Below, piece after piece: positions 2,754-35,202 of a stretch of DNA of 40,660 bases. The notes under the pieces were generated by a model that saw only the letters and a program-made list of their open reading frames with translations, ran no database searches and was not told where the DNA came from. The translations under genes and the position numbers were made by a program. The stretch's first letter is position 1; each line of letters starts with the position of its first letter. Source of the DNA: Patescibacteria group bacterium (GTDB lineage: Bacteria > Patescibacteriota > Minisyncoccia > Phycocordibacterales > UBA918); NCBI GenBank assembly GCA_015485575.1, contig WFTF01000047.1, positions 1 through 40,660 on the forward strand. The letters are read 5' to 3'.

Positions 2754-3422
2754 ATGGTACGAAACAAAGAAACATATAAGCAGGTCTTGGAATTTCGCAA
2801 GCGGGGCTTCACGTATGCGGAGATTGCAAAAATATGCGGTATTTCAAAAAGCACGGTGAGTAACTACCTCTCCAAAAAAAAGTTTTCCAAGGAAATAGCA
2901 AAGGAAAACGCACAGAAAGCGGCACGGGAGAATAAGAAGCGCATGAGACTGTTAAATAAAGCGCGTAAAGCCGAGCGCAACGCCCGCTATCGCGAGGCGT
3001 TGCGCTCGGCTGAGACCGAGTTTAAGCACTACAAGCATTCCCCGCTGTTTGTTGCCGGTTTATCGCTGTATATGGCGGATGGTGACCTTGGAGACACTGC
3101 ACGCATCCGGATGAGCAGTACCAATACGCAGGTGCATCGTATTTTTATACATTTTCTGCGTGATTTTCTGGGTATTGAGAGTACTCAGGTCACATTTGTG
3201 GCAACATTGTATACGGGCATGGACGAAAGTAGAGAAATGAAATGGTGGTCTCGTGCAATAAAACTATCAGTGCGGCATTTTGGTAAAACCCAGTTTTTGA
3301 AAACAGATAAGATCAACTCTCACCCCGCTACACATCATGGCTCAGGCAGTACGTTTCTGAATAACACCACCCAAAAGAAAAAACTGTTGCGTTGGATTCA
3401 GTTGATGCAAGCAGAGTTATAA
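2754..3422 (+). CDS. HTH + LAGLIDADG-like protein, paralog of 13894..14565
   Basis: 222 aa with an N-terminal HTH-like segment (GFTYAEIAKICGISKSTVSNYLS) and a single LAGLIDADG-like segment (LFVAGLSLYMADGDLGD). Hand alignment with the 223-aa ORF at 13894 works along its full length. Confidence 0.7.
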   Translation: MVRNKETYKQVLEFRKRGFTYAEIAKICGISKSTVSNYLSKKKFSKEIAKENAQKAARENKKRMRLLNKARKAERNARYREALRSAETEFKHYKHSPLFVAGLSLYMADGDLGDTARIRMSSTNTQVHRIFIHFLRDFLGIESTQVTFVATLYTGMDESREMKWWSRAIKLSVRHFGKTQFLKTDKINSHPATHHGSGSTFLNNTTQKKKLLRWIQLMQAEL

Positions 3423-3570: not shown

Positions 3571-3575
3571 CCTAT

Positions 3576-3603
3576 AAAAAGTTCCCCGTCCGGGGAACTT
3601 TTT
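3576..3603 (+). terminator. Rho-independent terminator after tRNA-Gly(GCC)
   Basis: AAAAAGTTCCCCG-TC-CGGGGAACTTTTT. Confidence 0.8.
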
Positions 3604-3726
3604 ATAGGTTCGGTCGGGATCGTAGCTTTGTGAATACAAAGCGTTACGCGAATCGAAGGGCTTTTGTGCTAGTTTGTGAGACGGAGTCGATACAAAATAG
3701 CCAAAAGGCGTGCTGAAGCTGTAAGC

Positions 3727-3747
3727 TTCGATTCTCCCTGGCCGCAC
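3727..3747 (+). repeat. 21-nt direct duplicate of the 3' end of tRNA-Gly(GCC)
   Basis: TTCGATTCTCCCTGGCCGCAC occurs at 3551-3571 (in the tRNA) and again at 3727-3747. The second copy lacks the 5' half of the T stem, so it is not a functional tRNA. Confidence 0.85.
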
Positions 3748-3800
3748 GAGTACAAAATGAGCGCACGTCAGTGCGTCATTTTTGTTCATACAGGATTGGG

Positions 3801-3824
3801 AATTTAGGGGTCAGACCCCTAATT
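3801..3824. repeat. Palindrome family A, copy 1
   Basis: AATTTAGGGGTC-A-GACCCCTAATT. Related copies lie at 14730-14755 and 16655-16679. Confidence 0.85.
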
Positions 3825-5844: not shown

Positions 5845-5890
5845 GGTTCATTCTCAATAAAGGACACATGTCCTTTATTGAGAATGAACC
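5845..5890. terminator. 22-bp perfect hairpin between yraN and the convergent tRNA-Pro unit
   Basis: GGTTCATTCTCAATAAAGGACA-CA-TGTCCTTTATTGAGAATGAACC. No T-run. Confidence 0.5.
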
Positions 5891-5892
5891 AT

Positions 5893-6290
5893 AATGAAAA
5901 TATTTATACCCAATGGATATCGCAAGTGGATGTGTAAAAATACGCACTCTGCACCTTCGTTTTCTCATGTCAGATGTTTAGCGACTTACGTATTCCGGGT
6001 GAATGAAAATTAAATAGCCCCAGTTGCTTTTTTTAAACGTGCAAGATAGAAAAACTGAACATCACTTGTTCAGTGCTGGTTATCGATATTTCTGCTCGCA
6101 ATCTCCAGAAATATCTGATGGACCTTTTGTTTTCCATCATGCTCTGACAAATTATAGTCAGAAAAAGCTCCACGTATTCGCTTTTTCTTTCTTAATTTGT
6201 ATGACCAAGCATACAAATTTCACTCACTCGGTCATAGAAATACATCTCACTCCGCTTGCTGTATTTCTACGACACTCATTCGTTCATTTG
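5893..6290 (-). ncRNA. Candidate structured non-coding region directly 3' of tRNA-Pro (copy C1 of the shared two-hairpin motif)
   Basis: No credible ORF. Several 6-10-bp hairpins are present. Hairpins at 6162-6186 and 6085-6115 are homologous to 33916-33936 and 33951-33981 with compensatory stem changes. Confidence 0.35.
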
Positions 6291-6361
6291 TCGGGATGCC
6301 GGGAATCGAACCCGGGCCACACGGTCCCAAACCGCGTACACTACCATTATGCTACACCCCG
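6291..6361 (-). tRNA. tRNA-Pro (anticodon UGG)
   Basis: Acceptor CGGGGTG/CATCCCG, anticodon loop TTTGGGA, T arm CCGGG-TTCGATT-CCCGG. No encoded CCA. Confidence 0.85.
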
Positions 6362-6548
6362 AATCACACTGTGCGGATATTAGCTGTACACAAAACGGCA
6401 TCTACAAGGAAGAATTCTCATGACACAAAATCAAAGAATGGTTTCCTTATATTTGCATTTTGCGGGCACATCATACCACCAGTTTTTAAAAAAAGCGAGT
6501 ATCTGTATGTTATCTGATACAATGTATGTTACAGCAATAGCAAGATAT

Positions 6549-7500: not shown

Positions 7501-7527
7501 AACCTAGGTCATTCAATGACCTAGGTT
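7501..7527. repeat. Palindrome family B, copy 1
   Basis: AACCTAGGTCATT-C-AATGACCTAGGTT, with 13-bp perfect arms. The second copy is at 34219-34249. Confidence 0.85.
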
Positions 7528-13893: not shown

Positions 13894-14565
13894 ATGACAT
13901 ATCCGGAATTAAAACAGAAAGCAATTCGCTTACGGAAAGATGGCTATTCGTATAGTATGATTTCTGAAAGACTATGTGTATCCAAAAGCACGTTACACTA
14001 CTGGTTGTCAGAAATACCCTATACAGCAAATGATGAGGTACGCCAAAGAATCGGAGAGGCGCGTGCGCGCTCGGGAGAGGTAAAACATCAGCAAAAACTT
14101 GAAACGTTTCGCCAATCGGCAAAACAGGCGAAAAAGGATATAGGTACTTTGTCGCAACGTGATTTGTTTATGCTTGGGTTGGGGATTTATATTGGAGAAG
14201 GTGAGAAAGGTGAGGTGATTGGGGTGATTAACTCTGACCCGCGTATTATTGTACTTATGATGCGGTGGTTTATGGAGGTGTGTGAGTTGAAAAAAGATAA
14301 CTTTTCAATTGCCATTCATCTATACCCCGATAACAACCAAAAACAGTGTTTGCAGTTTTGGTCTGAGGTAACCGGATTGCCACAGGCACAGTTTGGTAAA
14401 ACTCAGATTGACCGCCGGCGAAACAAAAAACAAGGAAAGCGAGGGAAGTTACCATATGGAACGGCGCATTTGCGTGTAAAGAGCAACGGACAGAAGGAGT
14501 TTGGTGTACTGTTGGCACGCAGAATTCATGCGTGGATGAAACTTGTGTTAGCGCACAAGATTTGA
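13894..14565 (+). CDS. HTH + LAGLIDADG-like protein, paralog of 2754..3422
   Basis: 223 aa with HTH-like GYSYSMISERLCVSKSTLHYWLS and LAGLIDADG-like LFMLGLGIYIGEGEKGE. The gene ends 16 nt before tRNA-Gly(UCC). Confidence 0.7.
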   Translation: MTYPELKQKAIRLRKDGYSYSMISERLCVSKSTLHYWLSEIPYTANDEVRQRIGEARARSGEVKHQQKLETFRQSAKQAKKDIGTLSQRDLFMLGLGIYIGEGEKGEVIGVINSDPRIIVLMMRWFMEVCELKKDNFSIAIHLYPDNNQKQCLQFWSEVTGLPQAQFGKTQIDRRRNKKQGKRGKLPYGTAHLRVKSNGQKEFGVLLARRIHAWMKLVLAHKI

Positions 14566-14720: not shown

Positions 14721-14757
14721 TTTTTTAAAAATTTAGGGGTCGGACCCCCTAAATTAA
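14721..14757. repeat. Left direct repeat of the island (palindrome A, copy 2)
   Basis: TTTTTTAAAAATTTAGGGGTCGGACCCCCTAAATTAA. The near-identical copy is at 16647-16681. Confidence 0.85.
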
Positions 14758-16646: not shown

Positions 16647-16690
16647 TTTTTTATAATTTAGGGGTCCGACCCCTAAATTACCCCTAAATT
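16647..16690. repeat. Right direct repeat of the island (palindrome A, copy 3, plus an extra half-arm)
   Basis: TTTTTTATAATTTAGGGGTCCGACCCCTAAATTA followed by a tandem CCCCTAAATT. Confidence 0.85.
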
Positions 16691-32408: not shown

Positions 32409-33839
32409 ATGCGTATGCTGTATCATCACACCACCACACACAAAGGAGCACTACTGGTGCTGGTGCTGGTGTTTGGCGCCATTTTTTTTGTGATCGCCGC
32501 GAGTTCTCTTAACTTTTTTGTTACTCAAACACAAGTGCAGAGAGCGAAGTACCAACTGGGGCAGGCACGGGAGATTGCGGAGGCGGGGCTGAACTACTAC
32601 AAGTGGTACCTTGCCCACTATCCGGACGATGTAACCAACGGCACCGGAGAACCGGGACCGTATGTGATGACGTACACTGATCCTGAGCTGGGGGATATTG
32701 GTGAGTTTTCTCTGTCTATCGCCAGCAGTACTTTTTGCGGTGAAGTGAGCTCTATAGAGATTACATCAACCGGCTACACCTATGAAAATCCTTCTCTAAA
32801 GCAAACCGTGTATGCGCGCTATGCGCGACCAACCGTTGCTGAGTATGCATACATTATCAATTCAAATGTGTGGGCAGGTTCCGACCGCACCATTATCGGT
32901 CCATATCACTCAAATGGGGGTATCCGTATGGATGGCACCAACAACTCCATTGTGACAAGTGGGCAGGAAACCTGGAATTGTACCAGCTCCTATGGTTGCG
33001 ACCCTGAAGATCCCAATGCCCCGGGTGTCTTCGGGAGTGGTCCCAACAGCAATCTCTGGTCCTTTCCTTCCCCACCGATTAACTTTACCGGTCTGACGGT
33101 GGACTTGGCGACCATGCGTGACCGGGCCGAAAACGGTGGCGGTATCTACATACCCCCATCAGGTGCGTACGGGTATCGGGTGAGTTTTCAAAGCGATGGC
33201 AGTGTGGCGGTGCGATTGGTGGATCGCACATACAGTTACTGGGGGTATAGTTCACGTGACGGTTGGCAGATTGAGCGGAATGTCATACGCGATGACGACC
33301 CGTATGCAAGTTATACCATTAACGAGAATTGTCCCGTTATCTTTGTGGAAGATAAAGTTTGGCTTGAGGGGGAGGTACCTACTCGTGTAACTTTGGCGGC
33401 AGCGGACACTGATACGCCCGGAGTAGACCCGTCTATTATTTTAAATGACAATATCACATACAGTACCGCATCCTCCGGTCTGCTTGCCATTGCGGAAGAC
33501 AATGTTTTAGTGGGACTGGTGGTGCCAAATGATATGACACTCAATGGTATTTTTGTCGCACAGAACGGGAACTTTGGAAGAAACTACTATCGCACATGGG
33601 GGTTTTATGATGTACTGTCTATACATAACGCGTACGTCACACGCAACTCGTTGACTATGTTTGGTACGGTGGTCTCCAATGGGCGAGTTGGAACCAAGTG
33701 GTCTTGTGGTGGTGTATTTTGTTCCGGCTTTGAAACTCGTTACAATTCATACGATAGGCGTTTGGTTGAAAATCCGCCACCGCTTGCACCAAACACCTCA
33801 GACGACTTCAAATTCACCGAGTGGAGAGAAATGGACTAA
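32409..33839 (+). CDS. Pilus-associated protein with an N-terminal hydrophobic anchor (PilX-like position)
   Basis: GALLVLVLVFGAIFFVIAASS N-terminal helix. It is the last gene of the pilus operon. 476 aa. Confidence 0.6.
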   Translation: MRMLYHHTTTHKGALLVLVLVFGAIFFVIAASSLNFFVTQTQVQRAKYQLGQAREIAEAGLNYYKWYLAHYPDDVTNGTGEPGPYVMTYTDPELGDIGEFSLSIASSTFCGEVSSIEITSTGYTYENPSLKQTVYARYARPTVAEYAYIINSNVWAGSDRTIIGPYHSNGGIRMDGTNNSIVTSGQETWNCTSSYGCDPEDPNAPGVFGSGPNSNLWSFPSPPINFTGLTVDLATMRDRAENGGGIYIPPSGAYGYRVSFQSDGSVAVRLVDRTYSYWGYSSRDGWQIERNVIRDDDPYASYTINENCPVIFVEDKVWLEGEVPTRVTLAAADTDTPGVDPSIILNDNITYSTASSGLLAIAEDNVLVGLVVPNDMTLNGIFVAQNGNFGRNYYRTWGFYDVLSIHNAYVTRNSLTMFGTVVSNGRVGTKWSCGGVFCSGFETRYNSYDRRLVENPPPLAPNTSDDFKFTEWREMD

Positions 33840-33840
33840 T

Positions 33841-34218
33841 GTCCATTTCTCTCCGTTCCGAGCGAGAGCTCGGACGCCCGATGTGAGGAGCCTGCGACGA
33901 ACCAGGGCGAGGTGAGAAGCGAATACTTGGAGCTTCGCAAGACCTTGCCTAGTATTTCTGGAGCTTGCGAACAGAAATACTGACAAGGTGTACTGCTGCT
34001 GTAAGCAGGGAAGCGAATCCGCTTTACCACTTACAACGCTTTGTCCCGCTGGACTTTTTATTCCGTTCTTGCATCGTGAGAAAGTCCGTGGGACTTTCGC
34101 AAGAGGTTGCCTGCTATTTCATGACCGGAGGGAAATGAAATAGCGACAACCTGAACAGCTTCTGTAGGAAGCGGACGCCAACGTGAGGTAAGACGGCTTG
34201 AGAGTCTGTCACAAGGTT
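33841..34218 (+). ncRNA. Candidate structured non-coding region (copy C2 of the shared two-hairpin motif)
   Basis: A run of about 380 nt has no ORF and many hairpins. These include TCCGAGC-GAGA-GCTCGGA, 33916-33936, 33943-33988, and AGGTTG..GCTATTTCAT-12 nt-ATGAAATAGC..CAACCT at 34104-34152. Confidence 0.4.
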
Positions 34219-34249
34219 ACCACCTAGGTCATTCGATGACCTAGGTGGT
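34219..34249. repeat. Palindrome family B, copy 2
   Basis: ACCACCTAGGTCAT-TCG-ATGACCTAGGTGGT, with 14-bp arms. Confidence 0.85.
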
Positions 34250-34413
34250 TGTGCATATACAAAGGGTGGTATAGAGAAGTGTACGCTATAAAAATAAAGG
34301 TGCTCATAGATACAATTAAGGTATACAAAATAGAGGAATCACAGGTGTATTGATATATCCCCACAACACCTTACAACCTTTGGCAGGATTGGACTGTGTT
34401 ACAATTTTCACAT

Positions 34414-35202
34414 ATGGCACATAAACCTCATACGCCGTTGGTTGTGGGTAATTGGAAGATGAATCCTGCCACTATCGGTCAAGCTCGCAAACTTTTTTTG
34501 GATACACGACGTGCAATTGGGCGAAGAAAGCTGGAAACACAAATTGCTATTGCACCCCCCTTTCCCTTTCTGTCTGAGATGCGGCGTTTGTCACCCTCGC
34601 AGCGTATTGAGTTGGCGGCGCAAGATGTTTTTTTTGAGAGCATTGGTGCATACACCGGTGAGGTGTCACTGCCGATGCTTAAAAGCGTTGGCGTTACGGC
34701 AGTGATTGTGGGACACTCTGAACGTCGTGCTGCCGGGGAGACGGATGAGGAAATATATAAAGATATACAAGCTATTTTTAAAAGTGGCGTAACCGCTATT
34801 GTGTGCGTGGGTGAAAAGGTGCGGGATAGTCACGGCAATTACTTTGGGGTGGTGGAGGCACAGTTGCGCTCGGCATTGCGTGACGTTCCAAAAACGAAAC
34901 TCCGACAATTGGTGATTGCGTATGAGCCGGTATGGGCAATCGGTACTGGAAAACATGCGACTCCGGAAGATGTATATGAGATGAAGTTGTTTATCCAAAA
35001 AATTATTGCAGATGTATTCGGAAGACCGGCACTTGCAAAAGTGCGAATTCTCTACGGTGGGTCAGTGAATAAAAAGAACGCACAAGATCTGCTTGCGGTT
35101 GGAGGAGTTGATGGTTTTTTGGTAGGAGGAGCGAGTTTAAAGCCGAAGGAATTTGCCACCATTATTCACATAGCGGAAGAATATGCCAAAGCAACCGTTT
35201 GA
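34414..35202 (+). CDS. tpiA: Triosephosphate isomerase
   Basis: VVGNWKMN, VGHSERR and AYEPVWAIGTG motifs. An alternative GTG start lies at 34396. Confidence 0.95.
   Translation: MAHKPHTPLVVGNWKMNPATIGQARKLFLDTRRAIGRRKLETQIAIAPPFPFLSEMRRLSPSQRIELAAQDVFFESIGAYTGEVSLPMLKSVGVTAVIVGHSERRAAGETDEEIYKDIQAIFKSGVTAIVCVGEKVRDSHGNYFGVVEAQLRSALRDVPKTKLRQLVIAYEPVWAIGTGKHATPEDVYEMKLFIQKIIADVFGRPALAKVRILYGGSVNKKNAQDLLAVGGVDGFLVGGASLKPKEFATIIHIAEEYAKATV

Follow-up and report, generated by a model that had tools for sequence, protein, structure and literature searches.

The E. coli REP/BIME and pneumococcal BOX repeats are multi-copy modular mosaics; they are intergenic, co-transcribed and hairpin-forming, often lie just past gene ends and vary in copy number. 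MITEs, such as the Correia elements of Neisseria, are non-autonomous repeats of ~100–150 bp, which occur in mRNAs, form RNA hairpins and leave filled and empty sites. Integrative islands and cis-mobilisable elements in tRNA genes are bounded by attL/attR partial-tRNA repeats. Eukaryotic SINEs are non-autonomous, structured RNA-like retroelements with variable-length target duplications, and their enzyme is supplied in trans. The ultra-small genomes of CPR/Patescibacteria are regarded as streamlined, with little mobile DNA. For another reduced genome, two papers mention the Rickettsia palindromic elements (RPEs), palindromic selfish repeats that enter protein-coding and RNA genes and leave their function (PMC1779305, PMC1166351).

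The region described here occupies positions 33841–34218 of the window, which is the whole 40,660-nt contig (C47) that we analysed from a Patescibacteria group bacterium. The genome, G000, comprises 800 kb in 88 contigs and is 91% complete; the names that homologous proteins bear in their sources put it among Patescibacteria such as Kaiserbacteria. In one genus, up to 92 copies per 0.8 Mb were found of a precisely folded ~95-nt module, the core, and no recognisable transposase tracks it among the enzyme families searched. The core family has no match in Rfam or in the literature searched. At the gathering thresholds of Rfam 15, the window gave four tRNAs only, and no other family, including ROOL, GOLLD, raiA, HEARO, OLE, self-cleaving ribozymes, group I/II introns and T-box; at E ≤ 10, the stretches 33700–34450 and 5850–6450 gave chance-level miRNA-type matches only. 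A previous sequence-only reading of this DNA could not assign the region to a known RNA class, and the Rfam run agrees with it. Literature searches on CPR structured repeats, tRNA-end duplication and start-codon duplication gave no account of the core family.

Each of the described systems resembles this family in part. Like REP/BIME and BOX repeats, the modules are multi-copy, recombined in different orders, intergenic, hairpin-forming, frequently placed directly behind gene ends and variable in copy number among relatives. Different from them, the core is not a simple palindrome; it is a three-hairpin junction with invariant single-stranded nucleotides, all its helices covary, and its copies are accompanied by duplicated gene ends and in some cases lie within coding starts. 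With MITEs and Correia elements the family shares size class, hairpin fold, variable copy number and filled and empty orthologous sites, and one composite has 12-nt terminal inverted repeats. However, the present locus has neither terminal inverted repeats nor a short fixed target duplication, and the flanking duplications of the family are long (~20–70 nt), variable and bounded by gene ends, with a strong orientation bias relative to transcription.

As in the tRNA-associated islands, the insert is bordered by a direct repeat of the tRNA part between T-loop and 3′ end, and the tRNA itself remains whole (11 of 36 tRNAs here); tandem arrays occur as well. Compared to the islands, the inserts are small (140–190 bp), folded and non-coding, and they carry no integrase or cargo genes; at least 11 different tRNAs are involved, each with a matching antisense segment, and the same core also targets protein-gene 5′ ends. 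The likeness to SINEs lies in the structured RNA-like repeat, the variable-length target duplications, the preference for tRNA genes and the dependence on an enzyme in trans, but G000 and the related genome G007 (36 core copies) have no reverse transcriptase, poly-A or internal promoter features are lacking, and nothing points to an RNA intermediate. The RPE likeness is one of layout: insertion leaves the genes functional, and the frame stays open through the element. RPEs are translated in frame within the host protein (PMC1779305, PMC1166351), whereas the read-through ORF of the present copies stops at a duplicated second start codon.

Composition of the region and fold of the core module

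The structured region is flanked by the stop codon of a 476-aa ORF on one side and by tpiA-pgk on the other. The ORF product is pilin-like without a Pfam domain, and it is preceded by two genes with type IV pilin N-methylation motifs. The predicted fold of the whole region has an energy of −170 kcal/mol (z = −7.05 versus shuffled sequence); the trailer of tRNA-Pro, which holds the second locus named by the sequence-only reading, also folds better than shuffled sequence (z = −6.1). That reading had implied one ~380-nt structured RNA sharing a motif with this one other locus. Instead, the shared hairpins are parts of the ~95-nt module, which has ~28 copies in the genome. Scores below refer to R1, the covariance model of the core that was used for the genome counts. 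The parts of the region and of the tpiA start are as follows.

33823–33854, + strand: hairpin H0 of 14 bp; the final codons of the 476-aa gene make up its 5′ arm, and its loop contains the stop codon TAA (33837–33839)
33858–33873, + strand: hairpin H1, CCGAGC-GAGA-GCTCGG, with the GNRA loop GAGA at 33864–33867
33874–33910, + strand: linker module W, ACGCCCGAUGUGAGG... to ...GGGCGAG
33911–34010, + strand: core copy X, R1 77.7 bits, E = 2e-16
34011–34074, + strand: inter-module spacer with small hairpins in the MFE fold, two mismatches versus the copy on contig C6
34075–34173, + strand: core copy Y, R1 101.8 bits, E = 2e-22, the top-scoring core in the genome
34174–34218, + strand: second W-like linker, GACGCCAACGUGAGG..., an internal repeat of the W motif
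34219–34249, no strand: palindrome B, CCACCTAGGTCATTCGATGACCTAGGTGG; the cassette closes with this palindrome, which is a dispersed element in its own right
34400–34416, + strand: −10 box of tpiA, TACAAT (34400–34405), and true ATG (34414); the structured region is upstream of this promoter

Both hairpins of the sequence-only reading are where it placed them, GAAGC-GAATACTTGGA-GCTTC at 33916–33936 and AGTATTTCTG-GAGCTTGCGAA-CAGAAATACT at 33951–33981. So are their minus-strand counterparts, (AA)AAAGC-GAATACGTGGA-GCTTT(TT) at 6186–6162 and GATATTTCTG-GAGATTGCGAG-CAGAAATATC at 6115–6085, and the stem differences between the two loci are compensatory, as it had claimed. The shared motif goes beyond chance: in a BLAST search of the whole 800-kb genome, one 27-nt segment matched at 92.6% (E = 5.5e-4) and one 19-nt segment at 94.7%, and a covariance model from other copies matched both loci (33911–34010 with 77.7 bits; 6056–6141 with 27.4 bits, E = 7e-4). 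Further GNRA-type loops, which it had also seen, are present, for example the GAGA loop of H1.

The core is ~95 nt in length and reads GGUGAGA-P1 (8 bp)-CGCAAGA-P2 (6 bp)-internal loop (3 nt/2 nt)-P3 (variable hairpin)-UG(A/U)AC-P4 (5 bp, loop UGUAA). In core X, P1 is at 33916–33936 and is followed by CGCAAGA; P2 encloses P3 (33951–33981), and P4 with its UGUAA loop is at 33996–34008. Hairpin 1 of the sequence-only reading is thus a P1 variant with a short stem and the loop GAAUACNUGGA, and hairpin 2 is P3. At the GH1 insertion site discussed below, genome G011 (L071, G011:C1, ~1369–1494) contains a different element, which shares only GGUGAGA-P1-CGCAAG and continues with unrelated hairpins; this suggests that the 5′ part of the core is the unit defining the junction.

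Covariation in the core is very strong once many copies are aligned. In a MAFFT seed alignment of 18 copies (A4), 20 of 29 pairs change on both sides and 94% of the cells are paired, compared to 79% for shuffled and ∼46% for slid alignments. In the alignment of 111 hits, 100 of them distinct (A5), 27 of 29 pairs change on both sides and 94.3% of the cells are paired (shuffled 72.3%, slid ∼45%), values reached by 0 of 500 shuffles; A5 was fitted to the covariance model, and the MAFFT seed agrees with it. G-U or U-G combinations occur 84 times in the core pairs and A-C or C-A 18 times. This large excess of G-U over A-C indicates that the fold is selected on the strand as written, the sense strand, as RNA or possibly as single-stranded DNA. 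The core structure is under selection, and the earlier proposal of selection on structure rather than on coding is borne out; the region itself is non-coding, and the core-spanning frame that is open in gene-start copies meets stops in both X and Y, as read by eye from the sequence.

The modules in front of core X are also conserved. H0 is kept with compensatory changes at the orthologous site of three relatives (G050, G058 and G059) and covaries with the coding sequence that forms its pairing partner, as the comparison of the tpiA-upstream site indicates; at its position, the C6 copy of the region carries a terminator-type hairpin of its own with an A-run and a T-run. The H1 stem is wholly swapped in the C6 copy (CGCTAC-GAGA-GTAGCG) around the same GAGA loop, and the same three relatives contain H1-equivalent hairpins. 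CGAUGU(GAGG) motifs related to W recur after the anti-T segments of tRNA cassettes (see below) and after P4 of other copies.

Two dispersed palindromes were observed besides the core. Palindrome B (CCTAGGTCATTCGATGACCTAGG core) has 15 sites in G000, nearly all of them intergenic, including 34219–34249 and 7503–7525 of the window. Palindrome A (TTTAGGGGTCNGACCCCTAAA) has 11 sites, including 3803–3823, 14732–14752 and 16657–16677 of the window, and ∼6 of the 11 are near tRNA genes.

Copy number, orientation and orthologous sites

The sequence-only reading had proposed a covariance-model search of the genome and of related metagenomes; the search of this genome and of related genomes recovered many more homologs: 28 core copies on 18 contigs of G000 and up to 92 in a relative. 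R1 finds 0–92 copies per genome in the genus (median 13) and is present in 29 of 31 congeners; two near-complete congeners (95% and 99% complete) have zero copies. Outside the genus, 5 of 150 other genomes of the class contain one or two copies each, and two of the best five out-of-genus copies are behind tRNA genes. Sub-segments of the region match many places in G000 and 28 of 41 related genomes. Regarding orientation, 24 of 27 copies in G000 point in the same direction as the upstream gene or tRNA (p = 5e-5).

The region is not a single entity either. Nearly all of it (33846–34246) recurs on contig C6 with 88% identity behind an unrelated fn3 gene, in non-homologous flanks. The homology begins directly after the stop-codon hairpin and stops at the terminal palindrome, and the central part is nearly identical. 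Membership in a paralogous gene family was rejected as the source of this likeness: the two upstream proteins of ∼475 aa are unrelated, one pilin-like without a Pfam domain and the other made of fn3 repeats.

Relatives hold partial or empty versions of both sites. G058 and G059 lack any spacer at the C6 site, the stop codon being 2–6 nt from the next ATG, and G050 has H0, H1 and W only there. The site upstream of tpiA holds zero, one or two cores: G058 has H0, H1 and W; G059 has these three and one core; G050 has H0 and a short remnant; plain terminators occupy the site in G016, G022 and G057. The ∼400-nt composite was found in this genome only, and the orthologous sites of close relatives hold subsets of its modules. 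These partial and empty sites indicate that the cassettes grow by module addition. The two near-identical composites of G000 probably arose by conversion between cassettes with shared flanking modules.

In G001 and G018 the core is located inside other composites. One composite subtype of G001 ends in 12-nt inverted repeats (CGTCTTTGCGAG...CTCGCAAAGACG) but lacks a clear duplication; other core copies are flanked by 20–70-nt duplications of gene ends. The sequence-only reading had considered that the shared segment might be part of a MITE-like element. It does belong to a repeated DNA element; classical terminal inverted repeats and short target duplications, the other half of that idea, are absent at 33841–34250.

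Copies behind tRNA genes and inside gene starts

About 15 of the 28 copies in G000 sit behind a tRNA gene on the same strand. The tRNA-linked features of the window are as follows.

3610–3752, + strand: tRNA-Gly(GCC) cassette, with anti-T segment at 3650–3657, core at 3629–3730 and re-copy of tRNA positions 52–72 at 3727–3747
6056–6141, − strand: diverged core behind tRNA-Pro (6290–6361, − strand), R1 27.4 bits, E = 7e-4, with P3 at 6085–6115
6162–6186, − strand: P1-type hairpin of the tRNA-Pro trailer, with GAAUACNUGGA as its loop, the counterpart of hairpin 1

In the tRNA-linked copies, the 3′ strand of P4 leads straight into a directly repeated piece of the tRNA (the re-copy), which extends from its T loop to the discriminator plus C. 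Where other copies have the CGCAAGA linker, these carry the complement of the T loop and of the 3′ strand of the T stem (anti-T), and farther upstream they carry a complement of the 3′ acceptor strand. Anti-T covaries with the tRNA (TTCAAGTC/GACTTGAA and TTCGAGTC/GACTCGAA) and reaches 13 nt for tRNA-Ala. A near-exact 16-nt copy of the own 3′ end lies 138–374 nt downstream of 11 of the 36 tRNAs of G000 and upstream of 0 of 36 (p = 4e-4); in the window, 3573–3752 is a case of this. In 6 of 6 MFE folds of cassettes, the antisense segments pair with the tRNA re-copy as a closing helix; in the tRNA-Gly(GCC) cassette, for example, the 5′ segments pair with it in this way. The diverged core behind tRNA-Pro has a T-run after P4 and no re-copy of the tRNA-Pro 3′ end. 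The GAAUACNUGGA loop motif has five intergenic sites in the genome and occurs also in other genera (L162, L164). Some tRNAs have their 5′ fragment duplicated upstream, in the same manner as the gene starts described below.

Several further observations concern these cassettes. The re-copies bound folded units of 140–190 nt, some of them without a core, which share a GGGAUUCGAACC-GCCGGAGYGAUGU motif. Tandem cassettes are present at tRNA-Tyr, tRNA-Arg and tRNA-Phe. All 11 tRNA genes examined end with the discriminator and one C, with no encoded CCA, and the re-copies end at the same C. A tandem of two units, each of core, spacer and duplicated start, precedes rnhB in G016 (L176, G016:C1, ∼1270–1540) and tRNA-Met in G002 (L043, G002:C8).

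The second class of target is the gene start. On contig C30 of G000 and in relatives, the core lies ∼10 codons inside a GH1 beta-glucosidase gene, beside a duplicated start. The filled allele is of the form −10 box, ATG..FPxGFYW, GGTGAGA..core..P4, 9–37 nt, ATG..FPxxFYW and the rest of the gene; the empty allele has its −10 box 5–10 nt before the ATG. Among 31 genomes read, 12 are filled and 19 empty, with insertion at the same nucleotide each time, and the filled alleles are scattered over the gene tree, forcing at least six changes. The same arrangement is found in rnhB, which encodes RNase HII (five genomes), and in msrA (one genome).

In all 15 cases examined, the upstream ORF continues across the core without a stop and terminates at the second ATG or close to it; 6 of them show an ATGA overlap, and the others have spacings of −16 to +21 nt. 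Counting distinct copies, 10 of 12 at gene starts have this frame open, versus 19 of 80 other copies (p = 1e-4). An open upstream ORF that ends at or near the second start points to read-through and re-initiation and not to removal; the gene-start copies thus bear the signature of being translated through within mRNAs, with putative translational coupling to the second start. The upstream fragments of GH1 and rnhB keep their ATG, frame and conserved residues in all 17 filled genomes, and most of their variation is at third positions.

A separate kind of insertion was noticed in the RNase HII genes of L057 (G021:C1, 1919–2011), G024:C9, G018:C11 and G046:C248. It is an in-frame mid-gene insertion of ∼80–100 nt, AT-rich and hairpin-rich, which is not an R1 core; it resembles the Rickettsia palindromic elements, and the ORFs are 241–263 aa in length versus ∼200.

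Spread of the family and competing explanations

Dispersed copies in non-homologous contexts and presence or absence at orthologous sites, two marks of an interspersed repeat, are both observed for the core. With moderate confidence, we favour the reading that the region is a compound trailer cassette of the pilin-like gene, built from a lineage-specific, mobile, structure-conserved repeat family that is presumably co-transcribed with its host genes. The core would be transcribed passively, in sense direction, within host RNA, where it would fold as a self-contained domain. It may spread within and between genomes inside small non-autonomous cassettes, which would land at the ends of transcription units, either behind terminator hairpins or at the T-loop and 3′ end of tRNAs, and also ∼10 codons into genes with a promoter just before the ATG. 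Insertion would duplicate the interrupted gene end, so that, as we propose, an intact gene survives. Since no dedicated enzyme is evident, we infer that the spread occurs by recombination or by template-switch repair that copies another cassette at hairpin-rich gene ends. The fold may be kept for the spreading step; alternatively, only compact inert folds may be tolerated inside host RNAs.

The search for a mobilising enzyme covered several families. PF00589 (tyrosine recombinase) has one match in G000, at C49:3980–4516, away from the tRNA inserts, and profile searches of G000 with PF00078 (RVT_1), PF01974 and PF01139 gave no match. A reverse transcriptase was rejected as the mobiliser, as it is absent from G000 and from G007 with its 36 copies and present in G042 and G043 with 0 copies; its presence in relatives does not follow core copy number. 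Dedicated integrases were not found: there is essentially one tyrosine recombinase per genome, and G043, without cores, has three matches. Archaeal-type splicing was discarded, as G000 has no tRNA-intron endonuclease (EndA) and no RtcB.

One further candidate was a family of three paralogous proteins of ∼222 aa with an N-terminal HTH.

2754–3422 and 13894–14565 of the window: two members of the HTH family
3496–4095 of contig C42 of G000: third member

Two members are directly upstream of tRNA-Gly genes, and the family has a LAGLIDADG-like motif. It is conserved across Patescibacteria with 55–72% identity. Its copy number correlates weakly with that of the core (rho = 0.43), a value that is not phylogenetically independent. 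The proposal of a LAGLIDADG homing endonuclease is not supported; the AlphaFold model (pLDDT 89) has no significant fold match in the PDB, and no LAGLIDADG enzyme is among its listed fold matches.

Several observations run counter to the mobile-repeat reading. No transposase-type enzyme tracks the core among the families searched (PF00589, PF00078, PF01974 and PF01139), and the locus lacks the terminal features of classical elements. The invariant junction nucleotides and four covarying helices of the core are characteristic of a functional RNA rather than of typical MITEs. Several diverged genomes retain H0, H1 and W at orthologous sites. The upstream GH1 duplicate keeps FPxGFYW with mostly third-position changes, which is unexpected for a dead target-site duplicate.

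The family ties together REP/BOX-like mosaic repeats, att-like tRNA 3′ re-copies and coding-start insertions rescued by a duplicated start codon and a stop-start overlap. The covariance model and the clean filled and empty sites offer a handle on enzyme-free repeat spread, on the tolerance of insertions at promoter-ATG genes and possibly on the biochemistry of the fold. In practice, the elements break assemblies, several copies being at contig ends, and create spurious ORFs and pseudo-tRNA fragments in annotation.

A domesticated RNA function ranks second. The core may be a host-beneficial RNA domain on transcripts, which halts exonucleases, flags sites for processing or is bound by a protein; in tRNA-linked copies, the closing helix would mimic the acceptor and T arms and let tRNA-processing enzymes trim the transcript. 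The strong covariation and conserved junction nucleotides, the sense-strand wobble bias and the orientation shared with the upstream gene are consistent with this, as is the position directly behind terminator or stop-codon hairpins, which show compensatory conservation of their own. So are the closing helices, made from each tRNA's own 3′ sequence and covarying with tRNA identity, and the tRNA-linked copies in other genera. However, congeners differ from 0 to 92 copies, the two genomes with none being near-complete (95% and 99%), and the same genes work with or without the core. The core in coding starts looks burdensome and in need of rescue by translational coupling, and no partner protein was identified. 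On balance we consider a host benefit unlikely, although it keeps a real share of the probability.

A bolder proposal is that the ∼95-nt fold does the work in a novel type of mobile element, which is directed at gene ends (T loop and 3′ end of tRNAs, and the initial ∼10 codons where a promoter just precedes the ATG) and regenerates the end that it interrupts. The core could even be intron-like or bypassed by ribosomes, since the upstream GH1 and rnhB start duplicates stay under protein-level purifying selection in 17 of 17 filled genomes. We give this proposal a small chance.

Also unlikely is a reading in which the upstream fragment becomes joined to the gene body, either because the core and the duplicated start are taken out of the RNA or because the ribosome skips them. 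Variation in the upstream fragments of the 17 filled genomes is mostly synonymous, with all four bases found in CCN codons and three in GGN codons; the downstream copies have N in FPxNFYW in 5 of 12 cases versus 1 of 19 empty alleles (p = 0.02), and the insertion junction reads ...GG|GGUGAGA. Against this, the upstream ORF open through the core (10 of 12 versus 19 of 80) and the ATGA overlap (6 of 15) argue for read-through and re-initiation, and the downstream copy always has its own ATG. G000 has no EndA, RtcB or reverse transcriptase, and Rfam gave no intron or ribozyme match. Recombination between diverged alleles could also yield intact, unequal copies. If removal or skipping were true, it would mean the loss of 135–170 nt at the RNA level in a bacterium without recognisable splicing machinery; in the case of removal, ATGAGTGTGTTTCCAAAAGATTTTTTATGG would be joined directly to GGAGCAGCAACC in the RNA.

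Considering the whole ∼400-nt region as one stand-alone, trans-acting structured ncRNA gene of the ROOL/GOLLD/raiA type is very hard to sustain. Its predicted stability is exceptional (z = −7), its second copy is 88% identical with compensatory stem swaps, and large ornate RNAs are often located near tRNAs. However, it matches nothing in Rfam, no promoter is present between the stop codon and H1, the composite is confined to this genome, with module subsets at the sites of close relatives, and the unit that is conserved is the ∼95-nt core in many unrelated contexts.

A cis-regulatory leader (riboswitch or attenuator) of the tpiA-pgk operon is barely credible: the region is upstream of tpiA on the same strand and offers alternative pairings (GGACUUU/AAAGUCC/GGACUUU at 34052–34099), but the conserved TACAAT 8 nt before the ATG at 34414 is downstream of the element, relatives without the element share this promoter-ATG arrangement, and the C6 copy precedes a divergently oriented ORF.

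The arrangement of TACAAT, 8–10 nt and ATG at tpiA is shared by most of the nine relatives examined. For tpiA, the mechanically assigned ORF start (GTG 34396) is probably wrong, the conserved start being the ATG at 34414, 8 nt past TACAAT. Many genes of the genus have a −10 box 5–10 nt from the ATG, which suggests leaderless mRNAs.
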